A stretch of 64,000 nt of DNA. Origin: Candidatus Polarisedimenticolia bacterium. GTDB taxonomy: Bacteria; Acidobacteriota; Polarisedimenticolia; Gp22-AA2. The notes under the pieces are model-generated. The model saw nothing but the letters and a program-made list of their open reading frames with translations. It made no database searches and was not told where the DNA came from. Shown here in pieces: positions 31,186 through 37,857 of the stretch. Every line of letters starts with the position of its first letter. The stretch's first letter is position 1. The DNA is taken from contig JBOGOE010000229.1 of NCBI GenBank assembly GCA_050747445.1, positions 2,511-66,510 on the forward strand, read 5' to 3'. Made by a program: the position numbers and the translations under genes.

Positions 31186-31214
31186 TTGACAATTACTTGA
31201 CTGCGCCTTATATT
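31186..31214 (+). promoter_or_regulatory. Near-consensus sigma70-type promoter TTGACA-N17-TATATT for prkA, in an AT-rich island
   Basis: ttgaca 31186-31191, 17-nt spacer, tatatt 31209-31214. GAGGA Shine-Dalgarno (31236-31240) before ATG 31246. The surrounding 31170-31245 is strikingly AT-rich for this genome. Confidence 0.55.
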
Positions 31215-31245
31215 ACCGGACAGTTGATGCGAAGCTGAGGAAAGC

Positions 31246-33381
31246 ATGGCCTATCAGAAAGATACGCTGCATTCCACCAGCCGGGATCCGGTGCCGGATC
31301 GGGAGACGAGGACGATGCCCACAGGCTCCGAGATCGTCCAGATGATCGGAAAGCTCCAGGACCTCCGGGGCTTCCGGGACCAGCACTGGGAAGGGAGCCT
31401 GGAAGATTACCTGCAGATCGTCCGGCACAATCCCAAGGTCACCCGCACGGCGTTCCAGCGGATGTACGACATGATTCTCGCGAAGGGAACGCGCGAGTAC
31501 TTCGAATACAAGAAGAAGATCGTCCACTACAACTTCTTCGACGACAAGGATCACGGCGGGCAGGACGCGATCTTCGGCCTCGATATTCCGCTGATGAAGC
31601 TCGTCAACGTGTTCAAATCGGCGGCCCATCACTACGGAACCGAGAAACGCGTCCTGCTGCTGCATGGACCGGTCGGCTCCTCAAAGTCGACGATCGTCCG
31701 CCTGCTCAAGAAGGGTCTGGAAGCCTACTCGAAGACGCCGGAAGGCGCTCTCTACAGCTTCTCGTGGGTGGTGCCGCCGGATTCCGGCCGCAAGCGGGCC
31801 GACCAGGGCATGGAGGTGGTCCCCTGCCCCATGCACGAGGAGCCGCTCCATCTCGTGCCCCAGGAGCTGCGGCCCGAAGTGCTGCGGGTCATCAACGAGG
31901 GCCGACCCGAAGGGGAACGGGTGGCGCTCGAGGGCGACCTGTGTCCGTTCTGCCGCCAGTACGACAAGGAGCTCAACCTGCGTTATGGCGGCGATTGGAC
32001 CAAGATCATCTCGCACGTGCGGGTGCGGCGGCAGATCCTGTCGGAGAAGGACCGGGTGGGGATCGGCACTTTCCAGCCGAAGGACGAGAAGAACCAGGAC
32101 TCGACCGAGCTCACGGGAGACATCAACTACCGCAAGATCGCCGAGTACGGCTCCGACTCCGACCCGCGCGCCTTCAACTTCGACGGCGAGTTCAACGTGG
32201 CCAACCGGGGACTCATCGAGTTCATCGAGGTCCTCAAGCTCGACGTCGCCTTCCTCTACGACCTGCTGGGGGCGTCGCAGGAGCACAAGATCAAGCCGAA
32301 GAAGTTCGCCCAGACCGACATCGACGAGGTGATCATCGGGCACACCAACGAGCCCGAGTACCGCAAGCTCCAGCACAACGAGTTCATGGAGGCGCTGCGG
32401 GACCGGACGGTCAAGATCGACATTCCGTACATCACCAAGCTGTCCGAGGAAATCAAGATCTACGAGAAGGACTACAATCCCTCCCGCATCAAGGGAAAAC
32501 ACATCGCCCCCCATACCCTGGAGATGGCGGCGATGTGGGCGGTCCTGACCCGGCTCGAGGAGCCGAAGAAGGCCGACCTGACGCTGATGCAGAAGCTCCG
32601 CCTCTACAACGGCAAGACGCTTCCCGGGTTCACCGAGGACAACGTCAAGGAGCTGCGCAAGGAAGCGATGCGCGAGGGGATGGACGGCATCTCGCCCCGG
32701 TACATCCAGGACAAGATCAGCAACGCCCTGGTCTCCGACAAGGGCGAGGGCTGCATCAACCCGTTCATGGTGCTCAACGAGCTGGAATCGGGACTGCGGC
32801 ATCACTCGCTGATCAATTCCGAGGAGCAGCGCAAGCGCTACCGCGACCTGCTCGCCGTCGTCAAACAGGAGTACGAGGACATCGCCAAGAACGAGGTCCA
32901 GCGCGCGATCTCCGCCGACGAGGAGGCGATCGCCCGCCTGTGCAGCAACTACATCGACAATGTCAAGGCGTACACCCAGCGGGAGCGGGTGCGGAACAAG
33001 TACACGGGGCAGGACGAGGAGCCCGACGAGCGCCTGATGCGCTCGATCGAGGAGAAGATCGACATCCCCGAAAACCGCAAGGACGACTTCCGCCGCGAGA
33101 TCATGAACTATATCGGCGCGCTGGCGGTCGAGGGGAAGACGTTCAACTACAAGACCAACGAGCGTCTCCACAAGGCGCTGGAGCTGAAGCTGTTCGAGGA
33201 CCAGAAGGACTCGATCAAGCTGACCTCCCTGGTCTCCTCGGTCGTCGACAAGGACACCCAGGAGAAGATCGATGTCGTCAAGAGCCGGCTGAAGAAGGAC
33301 TACAGCTACTGCGACATCTGCGCCACGGACGTTCTGAACTACGTGGCCAGCATCTTCGCCCGGGGCGACGCGCGGGATTGA
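31246..33381 (+). CDS. prkA: PrkA family serine protein kinase (YeaG homologue), AAA+ ATPase N-domain
   Basis: Highly conserved PrkA/YeaG sequence throughout ([66 protein letters not shown]). Confidence 0.9.
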
Positions 33382-36068: not shown

Positions 36069-37786
36069 TGAGCGAGCCCGCAGCTCCCGGATCGTCCGCC
36101 CAGTCCCAGGCATCGCCGGCACCGGTCGCCGCGGCGTCCGGCGTCCGCCAGTCGGTCTGGGCGCTGGCCGGCGGCAAAGGAGGCGTGGGTCGTTCCCTGT
36201 TGTGCGCCAATCTCGGGATCCAGCTGGCCCGCATGGGGCGTCGTGTCGTCCTGGTCGACCTCGACCTGCAGGGCAGCAACCTGCAGTCCTATCTCGGGTT
36301 CCAGCGGATGCCCCGCACCCTCGCGGACTTCGCGTCCGGCAAGGTCCGCCTGCTGTCGGAGATCGCGTGCGAGACGCCGACCGGGCATCTGCGGCTGGTC
36401 GGCGGGCTGCAGCGGGGCGAGGCCGGCGACGACCCCGTGGCCTTCGTGCGCCAGGTCGCCGCGCAGTTCGGAACGCTGCATGCCGACCAGGTGCTGGTCG
36501 ACTGCGGGTCGGGCCGGTTCCCGGCCACCATCGCCGCATTTGCGGAGGCGACTGTCGGCATCCTGGTCACCACGCCGGAGCCCGCCGCGCTCGAAGGGAC
36601 CTACCTGTTCACCGAGTCCTACCTGCGCTGGTGCCTGGTCCGCGCTTTGACCGGCGAACGGATGGCGGAGGTGGATCGGCGTCTCAAGGACGGCGGTCAC
36701 GACACCGCGCGCGCGTCGTTCCGCGGATTCATGACCCGGCTGGGGGCCATCGATCCCGACGCCCGCGACACCATCGCCGGCGTGGTCCGCCGGACGCGCC
36801 TGGAGCTGGTGTTGAACCAGGTGCGCGGCGAGACCGACGAGGAGGCGACGGCCTCGTTGCAGAGCGGCTTCCGCAAGTGTTTCGGGCTCAACCTCCAGAC
36901 CGCCGGCGCCATCGAGCACGACCTGTCGATCCTGCAGTCGGTGCAGAAGCGGCGCCCCCTGTCCCAGCAGTATCCCAACGCCGCTTCCACCAAAGGGATC
37001 GCGCGGGCCGCGACCCGGCTGCTGGCGGTGTCCGGCGCTCCCTTGCGCGAGGCCGACGAGGAGTGGGAGGACCTCGACGCCATCGATCACTATCGCGTCC
37101 TCGAGGTGGTCCCCAAGGCCTCCCCAAAGGAGGTCCAGTCGGCCTATCAACTCCTGAAGAAAACCTACGACCCCGAGACGACCGTGCTCGCCCCCCTCAT
37201 GGACGCCCCCGGACTGCGCGAGATGCAGGCGCGGATCGAGTCGGCCTACCGCACGCTGATCTTCCTGGAAAGCCGCTCGGATTACGATCGCCGGCTCCTG
37301 GACAAGGGTCGCGATCGCGACCGCCAGCCCGGGGCCCCCTCTCCGGCGGCCGCTCCGGCCGCACCGGTCGAGCCGGCCGGCGAAGGGGGGACGCTGGAGA
37401 TGGCGGGTGGGAATTCCCCCCCCATGACGCCCCCACCCGCGCCCGCGTCGACCGCCACGAGCGACCGGGCGACAGTATCCCCGGAGGAGCCGGACGCGAC
37501 CTCGCCGACGCCGGTGACCGCCGCCACGGCCGCCCGGGCCCCCCCGGGGTCCCCGCCGGACAGGCGATTCCCGCCAGCGGCGGCGAGCTCCGCGACGAAC
37601 GCCAGAGGCGGCGCCAGACGCTGGAGGGAATTGCCGAGAAGACCAAGATCCGGCGCGCCTACCTGCAGGCCATCGAGGAGGAGCGTTTCGGAGACCTGCC
37701 GGCCGCCGTCTTCGTCCGCGGCTTCATCAGGGAGTACGCGCGCAGCCTGGGGCTCCCCGGCGACGAAGTGGTCCGGCAGTACATGA
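36068..37786 (+). CDS. ParA/MinD-like P-loop protein with Walker-A Lys-to-Arg substitution (GGKGGVGRS), degenerate J-like domain (HPD replaced by YDP) and Pro/Ala/Thr-rich linker; 3' end likely mis-framed
   Basis: ATG 36068 overlaps spoVR TGA. Deviant Walker A aligns to MinD/ParA xKGGxGK[ST] but has R at the catalytic Lys. J-like DHYRVLEVVPKASPKEVQSAYQLLKKTYDPE. After about 37545 this frame becomes implausible while the -1 frame encodes an HTH. Confidence 0.55.
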   Translation: MSEPAAPGSSAQSQASPAPVAAASGVRQSVWALAGGKGGVGRSLLCANLGIQLARMGRRVVLVDLDLQGSNLQSYLGFQRMPRTLADFASGKVRLLSEIACETPTGHLRLVGGLQRGEAGDDPVAFVRQVAAQFGTLHADQVLVDCGSGRFPATIAAFAEATVGILVTTPEPAALEGTYLFTESYLRWCLVRALTGERMAEVDRRLKDGGHDTARASFRGFMTRLGAIDPDARDTIAGVVRRTRLELVLNQVRGETDEEATASLQSGFRKCFGLNLQTAGAIEHDLSILQSVQKRRPLSQQYPNAASTKGIARAATRLLAVSGAPLREADEEWEDLDAIDHYRVLEVVPKASPKEVQSAYQLLKKTYDPETTVLAPLMDAPGLREMQARIESAYRTLIFLESRSDYDRRLLDKGRDRDRQPGAPSPAAAPAAPVEPAGEGGTLEMAGGNSPPMTPPPAPASTATSDRATVSPEEPDATSPTPVTAATAARAPPGSPPDRRFPPAAASSATNARGGARRWRELPRRPRSGAPTCRPSRRSVSETCRPPSSSAASSGSTRAAWGSPATKWSGST

Positions 37787-37857
37787 AACGCCACCGGGAC
37801 TGGCAGGAGTCGCGCCCGCGCCCTCCGGGCAGCCCGGATCCCTTTTCCAGCAACTGA
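37537..37857 (+). CDS. RodZ-like HTH_25 (XRE-type) domain segment in the -1 frame, with no own start codon; probable C-terminus of the 36068 gene
   Basis: ELRDERQRRRQTLEGIAEKTKIRRAYLQAIEEERFGDLPAAVFVRGFIREYARSLGLPGDEVVRQYM matches the RodZ/HTH_25 N-terminal pattern. No ATG/GTG/TTG start in frame. Immediately follows a C7 tract (37539-37545). Confidence 0.5.
   Translation, partial: GPPGVPAGQAIPASGGELRDERQRRRQTLEGIAEKTKIRRAYLQAIEEERFGDLPAAVFVRGFIREYARSLGLPGDEVVRQYMKRHRDWQESRPRPPGSPDPFSSN

Follow-up and report, generated by a model that had tools for sequence, protein, structure and literature searches.

The genes for PrkA, YeaH and SpoVR are among the most widespread stress genes of bacteria that lack a known mechanism. 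Escherichia coli carries them as yeaG-yeaH plus ycgB and Bacillus subtilis as prkA-yhbH plus spoVR, and they depend on sigma-S and NtrC in E. coli and on sigma-E in Bacillus. According to the literature, prkA-yeaH-spoVR alone is the usual operon, and PrkA, YeaH and SpoVR are mutually dependent in six species. We analysed a 64-kb stretch of DNA from Candidatus Polarisedimenticolia bacterium (hereafter the window), in which members of these three Pfam families are again found in that order on the + strand, with a fourth gene, here called gene 4, after them (the four-gene region spans 31186-37857). This locus differs from the E. coli and Bacillus modules in its near-consensus, predicted sigma-70-type promoter, in the overlapping fourth gene appended to it and in the interruption of its spoVR. 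It is the known three-gene module in a four-gene form, and its clade-specific gene 4 was previously undescribed. We consider it probable that, in this Polarisedimenticolia-type acidobacterium, the four genes make up a single operon in which gene 4 acts alongside the trio as an adaptor or regulator.

A Pfam domain search of the open reading frames (ORFs) of the window places prkA, yeaH, spoVR and gene 4 head-to-tail in this order, and the spacers between them measure 85, 4 and -1 nt, respectively. The initial annotation had described four co-linear, tightly spaced genes, and both the domains and the spacing bear it out. At the last junction, which reads TGATG, the TGA of spoVR (36066-36068) overlaps the ATG of gene 4 (36068-36070); this overlap, in line with the translational coupling proposed earlier, is not peculiar to the window and is kept in 14 distinct loci. 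From this arrangement, the four genes are probably co-transcribed.

The two proximal genes are intact. prkA (yeaG; 31246-33381, +) encodes 711 aa and fully covers both family profiles, AAA_PrkA (PF08298, E-value 2.6e-93) and the C-terminal PrkA domain (PF06798, 3.7e-92), with a Walker A motif, GPVGSSKS, at residue 141. Its score against the NCBIfam YeaG equivalog PRK15455 is 234 bits, below the cut-off of 576, and by the NCBI threshold its sequence is that of a family member and not of an equivalog of enterobacterial YeaG. yeaH (yhbH, DUF444; 33467-34573, +) encodes 368 aa, matches PF04285 (6.4e-84) and scores 619.8 bits against NCBIfam NF003711, above the cut-off of 388. Its DxSxS metal-site motif is present as DVSGS at residue 200; sites of this kind are also found in von Willebrand A domains that act as partners of AAA+ rings. 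The closest relative available, locus L001, shares 91.6% nucleotide identity with the window over 21.7 kb, and a rigorous check of gene integrity covers this stretch. Against L001, the PrkA protein is 99.0% and the YeaH protein 99.5% identical, with ratios of nonsynonymous to synonymous substitution rates (dN/dS) of 0.021 and 0.017. The third gene, spoVR (ycgB; 34578-36068, +), has 496 codons and one internal stop. Its longest intact ORF starts at ATG 34752, encodes 438 aa and matches SpoVR (PF04293, 5.1e-117) and SpoVR_C (8.9e-09); the frame extends upstream of 34752 to an ATG at 34578, 4 nt after the yeaH stop.

Gene 4 (36068-37857, +) is split by a -1 frameshift, and comprises a MinD/FleN-like P-loop domain, a J-like domain, a disordered Pro/Ala linker and a RodZ-type helix-turn-helix (HTH) domain, HTH_25. 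Pfam detects CbiA/ParA and DnaJ in the ORF at 36068-37786, and HTH_25 in the other (-1) frame, which ends at 37857. The frame switches within the Pro/Ala-rich linker at a C7 homopolymer (37539-37545, +), aligned with a C8 in L001; in this linker the window also has an in-frame gap of 27 nt in the DNA alignment with L001. Adding one C to gene 4 yields a protein of 596 aa that aligns with its family to the end, and in its homologues the P-loop, J-like and HTH_25 domains belong to one protein, 550-630 aa long.

Two of the three domains depart from their namesakes. The P-loop motif, GGKGGVGRS, retains the signature Lys while the Walker-A Lys is replaced by Arg, and the score of gene 4 against NCBIfam AAA_KGGVGR (44 bits) is below the cut-off of 90. 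The DnaJ match barely exceeds its gathering score (28.6 versus 27.8 bits), and the J-like domain has YDPE instead of HPD, at a position not conserved in the family. HTH_25 is a firm match (3.6e-22), and the C-terminal 75 residues can be aligned over their whole length with the RodZ domains of 4gqm, 3fym and 2wus_R, the last of these bound to MreB. The protein ends about 30 residues after the HTH, and this final segment shows no Pfam domain and no predicted helix, although no transmembrane prediction was run.

An AlphaFold2 model of an intact homologue (P0002, 75% identical to gene 4) has a predicted local distance difference test score of 85.9 and a predicted template modelling (TM) score of 0.71; it is confident except in the linker (residues 422-479), and the helices of the J-like domain are predicted. 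In a Foldseek search, its best matches in the Protein Data Bank (PDB) were FleN with AMPPNP, FleN bound to the AAA+ domain of FleQ, FlhG and MinD, all at a probability of 1.00 and with TM-scores normalised to the target of 0.77-0.87. Sequence searches agree with the FleN/MinD-like fold. The N-terminal 320 residues of the P0002 model thus share the fold of these SIMIBI proteins with deviant Walker A motifs (TM-score 0.86 to 5j1j), including the signature Lys in GGKGG. In contrast to FleN, FlhG and MinD, gene 4 has Arg, or in its deepest clade Thr, at the Walker-A Lys, a helical insertion in the FleN-like domain of the model (approximately residues 185-240) and fused J-like and HTH_25 domains, and it is found without a flagellar or division gene context. 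That a MinD-like protein can dock on an AAA+ domain is known from FleN, which binds that of FleQ (7ejw, 8pb9, 8p53).

These features exclude four simpler identities. Gene 4 is not a genuine MinD or ParA, as it lacks the P-loop Lys. Nor is it a J-domain co-chaperone: it shares with DnaJ/Hsp40 a marginal Pfam match and predicted helices, but DPE stands in place of HPD, and a J domain without HPD is not expected to stimulate the ATPase of Hsp70. RodZ is rejected because the HTH of gene 4 is C-terminal, with no RodZ-type transmembrane or periplasmic part following in the few residues that remain, as far as can be told without a transmembrane prediction. FlhG is rejected because no flagellar genes were present in the loci examined and the C-terminus consists of J-like and HTH domains, although a membrane helix was not searched for. 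The 'ParA-like' of the initial annotation was right about a P-loop domain of the MinD/FleN type, but undersells a three-domain fusion whose P-loop and J domain are both degenerate. Gene 4 is best described as a presumably non-catalytic scaffold built from MinD/FleN, J and RodZ folds. We found nothing about gene 4 in the literature on KGGVGR or Polarisedimenticolia.

Public annotation of the family needs care. The Joint Genome Institute (JGI) call of the closest homologue (P0001) begins at an internal TTG, which removes the P-loop (L001 9869-10001), although the open frame in L001 continues upstream to an ATG overlapping the spoVR stop. Additionally, the JGI name 'flagellar biosynthesis protein FlhG' is an automatic and misleading label for the gene-4 family.

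Scanning a single genome for each species gave 79 gene-4 loci (85 with the loci from earlier comparisons), and these form two classes, 23 fused and 62 split. The fused loci are high-GC and acidobacterial, mostly labelled Polarisedimenticolia, and in every one with upstream DNA gene 4 directly follows prkA-yeaH-spoVR, so that the module survived this check of linkage across relatives. The order prkA-yeaH-spoVR-gene 4-GCS2 is found at 90%, 68% and 44% gene-4 identity, the order of the trio itself in at least 20 related loci, and linkage of the genes down to about 33% gene-4 identity. In all 23 fused copies the Walker-A Lys is replaced by Arg or, in the deepest clade, Thr. The split loci, mostly from Bdellovibrionota, instead encode a MinD-like protein with a GKS or GKT P-loop and a separate J-like/HTH_25 protein, and none of the 62 has prkA nearby (locus DNA up to 8 kb on each side). 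The fusion, the loss of the catalytic Lys and residence in a prkA operon go together, and therefore suggest recruitment rather than chance adjacency.

Gene 4 and the Bdellovibrionota pair share three domains in the same order, with 27-37% identity over their full length; the pair differs in its canonical GKS P-loop and in its division into two ORFs, split between the ATPase and J-like domains. A gene for a Lon N-domain protein lies before the pair and rluD-like and yfiH-like genes lie after it, whereas prkA is absent from the 8 kb around it. In the ORF listings of individual Bdellovibrionota loci (around positions 6300-11200), L034, L048 and L031 share an upstream ORF and rluD-like and yfiH/PgeF-like flanks, and L046 differs. 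The upstream ORF of L034, the locus whose ORFs were searched with Pfam, encodes a Lon N-terminal (LON_substr_bdg) protein.

The predicted promoter of the operon is of sigma-70 type (31186-31214, +) and consists of TTGACA (31186-31191), a 17-nt spacer and TATATT (31209-31214), matching the consensus at 11 of 12 hexamer positions. A search of the 64 kb with one mismatch or fewer returned this single match, where 100 shuffles gave an expectation of 0, and within a scanned 13 kb the only two promoter-like sites both lie in the intergenic region upstream of prkA. Among 92 loci, exact TTGACA-N17-TATATT is confined to the 15 in which the DNA upstream of prkA is present, and each of these has a single copy, always in the same position. 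When the 330 nt before prkA were compared among 12 distinct relatives, the sole alignable block was TTTTGACA-N-TATATT, preceded in most relatives by an A/T tract. L022 and L023 retain the block despite a gene-4 identity of only 33%, and in L005 and L006 the promoter is still present between prkA and genes for an extracytoplasmic function (ECF) sigma factor and its anti-sigma factor. On these comparisons, the near-consensus promoter noted at the outset is conserved and is not a chance match. That it confers strong, regulated expression, as also suggested in the initial annotation, is a plausible reading of its sequence.

A second TTGACT inside the promoter spacer (31197-31202, +) forms, with the -35 element, a direct repeat, TTTGACA-N4-CTTGACT (31186-31202), of 7 bp with an 11-bp period. 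The repeat extends across the -35 element and the spacer and is kept in all aligned relatives except the two most distant, L022 and L023. Its layout resembles that of response-regulator binding sites, and it may be the site of a regulator. Downstream, the GAGGA ribosome-binding site (31237-31241, +), correctly identified before, lies 4 nt before the prkA ATG at 31246, and GAGGAAA is kept in most close relatives. This start is supported by a conserved peptide, M-x-YQKDT, even in L016, in which the ATG is shifted.

On the opposite strand, a divergent promoter-like site, TTGACA-N17-TAACAT (31110-31138, -), matches 10 of 12 consensus positions and faces genes for a PilZ protein (29946-31085) and a GGDEF-PilZ protein (28741-29949), which it would serve. 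Both hexamers are kept in the eight closer relatives aligned, and the 160-bp intergenic region therefore appears to hold two predicted promoters back to back. No sigma-54 motif was noticed by eye in a short stretch upstream of prkA, where no motif search was run. Approximately 10 kb downstream of the four genes, the window encodes an NtrC-type sigma-54 activator and a HAMP/PAS histidine kinase (47222-50957, -), which are syntenic in L001, L002 and L005. The ECF sigma factor and zf-HC2 anti-sigma pair directly 5' of prkA occupies 3798-5035 in L005 and 357-1594 in L006 (44% gene-4 identity).

The promoter region is also where base composition departs most from that of the window, which has an overall GC content of 69.7%. 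The most AT-rich 80 bp of the 64 kb (31177-31256) have 40% GC, with an A7/T4 tract just 5' of the -35 element; second are 80 bp in an apparent intergenic region at 52543-52622 (42.5% GC). The AT-rich island proposed earlier is thus a genuine minimum, but merely the promoter region and not foreign DNA. GC content at third codon positions (GC3) is 0.91-0.95 in prkA, yeaH and spoVR, the same as in neighbouring genes; it is codon positions 1 and 2 that lower the total GC of the three genes. The operon genes are therefore not foreign DNA, and an island origin is ruled out.

At its distal end the unit is bounded by another promoter element. An extended -10 (TGGTAGAAT, 37949-37957, +) lies about 22 nt upstream of the ATG (37980) of a gshA-like gene, and an alignment of 17 distinct sequences shows TG[GA]TAGAAT in 13 of them (L008 has TAAGAT), while the rest of the spacer is unalignable. 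As the gshA-like gene has its own conserved extended -10, the unit appears to end after gene 4. That gene (37980-39365) encodes a GCS2 protein, a plant-type glutamate-cysteine ligase, with a score of 374 bits against TIGR01436, below its cut-off. No convincing intrinsic terminator was found after gene 4, where the fold of the spacer is marginally better than that of shuffled sequences (z = -1.68). Within the unit, the prkA-yeaH spacer contains a GC-rich hairpin followed by TTTCGTTTCA (33399-33452, +), possibly a leaky terminator or attenuator. Several relatives have a similar hairpin and T-rich tail in this spacer, but its fold in the window is no more stable than shuffles (z = 0.32), which is weak evidence. 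The hairpin would be at most a leaky attenuator, and could set the stoichiometry of PrkA to YeaH by partial termination.

The lesions that the initial annotation reported in the two distal genes, with prkA and yeaH intact, are present in the sequence and private to it. In addition to the frameshift of gene 4, codon 52 of spoVR is a TAA nonsense codon (34731-34733, +), which replaces an invariant Tyr (TAT in L001) and interrupts the conserved N-terminal motif FPTRYPHW at its Tyr. The site holds a Tyr codon (TAT or TAC) in 25 of 25 sequences, comprising 19 related loci and 6 metagenome contigs; the latter, all distant, were returned by a metagenome scan in which the position of the TAA was left open (N). 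Among the 18 genes comparable with L001, only spoVR and gene 4 are broken. Their dN/dS values against L001 (0.071 for spoVR, 0.10-0.11 for gene 4) are low and near those of intact neighbours (0.08-0.09). Purifying selection has therefore acted on both genes through practically the whole of their divergence from L001, and the lesions are either very recent or artefacts.

Errors of sequencing or assembly, with the four-gene operon of the organism intact, would account for the privacy of both lesions and for dN/dS values (0.07 and 0.10) that equal those of intact genes. Poly-C runs are classic error sites, and the frameshift comes down to one base in such a run (C7 versus C8); the nearest strain is consistent with artefact as far as it reaches. 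Exact-sequence look-ups found no record of PrkA or of the truncated SpoVR ORF, and for YeaH a single match, on a 3.3-kb contig of a 99.88%-identical strain (L086; GCA_050747565.1, JBOGOD010000164.1, a public metagenome-assembled genome). This contig aligns with 31330-34679 of the window, is identical over the shared residues (29-711 of PrkA, all of YeaH and 1-34 of SpoVR), and ends 52 nt before the TAA. However, the change from TAT to TAA is a substitution and not a homopolymer error. The other 23 homopolymer runs of at least 7 in the window show no frame problem in a crude frame plot; this whole-window plot of GC3, although noisy, gave no further frameshift signature, and the spots that it flagged fit adjacent genes in the same frame. 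Additionally, the 16 other genes comparable with L001 are unbroken, and two errors in adjacent genes would be expected with a chance of roughly 2-3% from gene lengths (a rough estimate at a uniform rate). On balance, we rate artefact a little below an even chance.

The concentration of two independent hits in adjacent, overlapping genes, with none among those 16 neighbours, speaks for real and recent lesions. The distal half of the operon would then be undergoing inactivation, the spoVR stop cutting the coupled translation of gene 4 and so relaxing selection on it. E. coli can benefit from losing yeaG, yeaH or ycgB during growth on arginine, and poly-C runs are also natural hot spots of slippage. 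Yet purifying selection on prkA and yeaH is still very strong (dN/dS 0.02), in a trio whose members are mutually dependent elsewhere, and neither lesion is found in any second assembly. Real inactivation is a serious possibility to which we would give not quite half the weight. The lesions bear mainly on assembly quality or on the history of the strain.

A further question is whether gene 4 has any functional tie to PrkA, YeaH and SpoVR, or has merely been inherited between spoVR and gshA as a syntenic passenger. Several observations weigh against a tie. Among the loci compared, the link of gene 4 to the trio is restricted to one clade, the homologues of Bdellovibrionota occur without prkA nearby, and the six metagenome contigs, which are unrelated and whose SpoVR is 56-60% identical, carry prkA-yeaH-spoVR without a gene 4 after it. 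The gshA-like gene is just as constant a neighbour of gene 4, which, in the deepest clade (L022, L023 and L038), overlaps the start of that gene rather than spoVR. In L022 an extra ORF of about 157 aa (7579-8052), which has no Pfam match, lies between spoVR and gene 4 and overlaps the gene-4 start (GTGA), and L023 has a similar gap of about 500 nt at this place. The linkage could thus be, in part, inherited synteny within one lineage. As for the unit itself, the weak hairpin and T-tract after prkA may bear on whether there is a single transcript, and the biochemical activity of PrkA (kinase, protease) is disputed, with neither activity found for PrkA of Bacillus anthracis (PMC13001217).

Nonetheless, the linkage persists at 33% gene-4 identity while the flanks change: upstream of prkA, relatives have either PilZ/GGDEF genes or the ECF sigma/anti-sigma pair, and L022 and L023 have lost FTCD. 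Additionally, 14 loci keep the overlap between the spoVR stop and the gene-4 start, the gshA-like gene has a separate, conserved predicted promoter in the clade of the window, and fusion and Walker-A Lys loss coincide exactly with residence in the prkA operon. A mere passenger therefore seems to us fairly unlikely, and a four-gene operon with a recruited gene 4 the better account. A last explanation of the lesions, programmed recoding by read-through of the spoVR stop and a -1 ribosomal frameshift on the C-run of gene 4, is most improbable and is rejected on comparative grounds: a C CCC CCG context could in principle permit -1 slippage, but of the three stop codons TAA is the least prone to read-through, approximately 25 relatives all have a sense codon there, all 23 fused homologues are single ORFs and no conserved stimulatory structure was seen.

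If the four genes form one operon, the conserved sigma-70-like promoter would drive them all. In many bacteria, PrkA (an AAA+ ATPase with a kinase-like tail), YeaH and SpoVR act as one pathway of adaptation to stress and starvation. Gene 4 would be translated by termination and reinitiation at the spoVR stop, in step with SpoVR, and the spoVR TAA, if real, would lower its translation by uncoupling the two. Its product would serve the PrkA machine without catalysis of its own, as an adaptor or regulator and not as a partition ATPase or Hsp70 co-chaperone, and may bind the PrkA complex through its FleN-like domain, with the HTH linking the complex to MreB or to DNA. In its most specific form, this proposal makes gene 4 a dedicated fourth subunit of the PrkA machine, with a hydrolysis-dead FleN-like domain seated on the AAA+ ring and an HTH reaching to MreB and cell-wall elongation, or to DNA, and with the loss of the Lys and of HPD marking the conversion of an autonomous MinD-like/J-like pair, such as that of Bdellovibrionota, into a scaffold. 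We regard this specific form as speculative and, taken as a whole, quite unlikely.

If true, it would open a first physical route to the targets of the PrkA module. A fused, catalytically stripped gene 4 that overlaps spoVR is a testable lead in two respects, AAA+ docking by the FleN-like domain and MreB binding by the RodZ-like domain. Additionally, a perfectly conserved promoter with an embedded repeat provides a defined target for finding the regulator of these genes, in a phylum for which there are very little promoter data.

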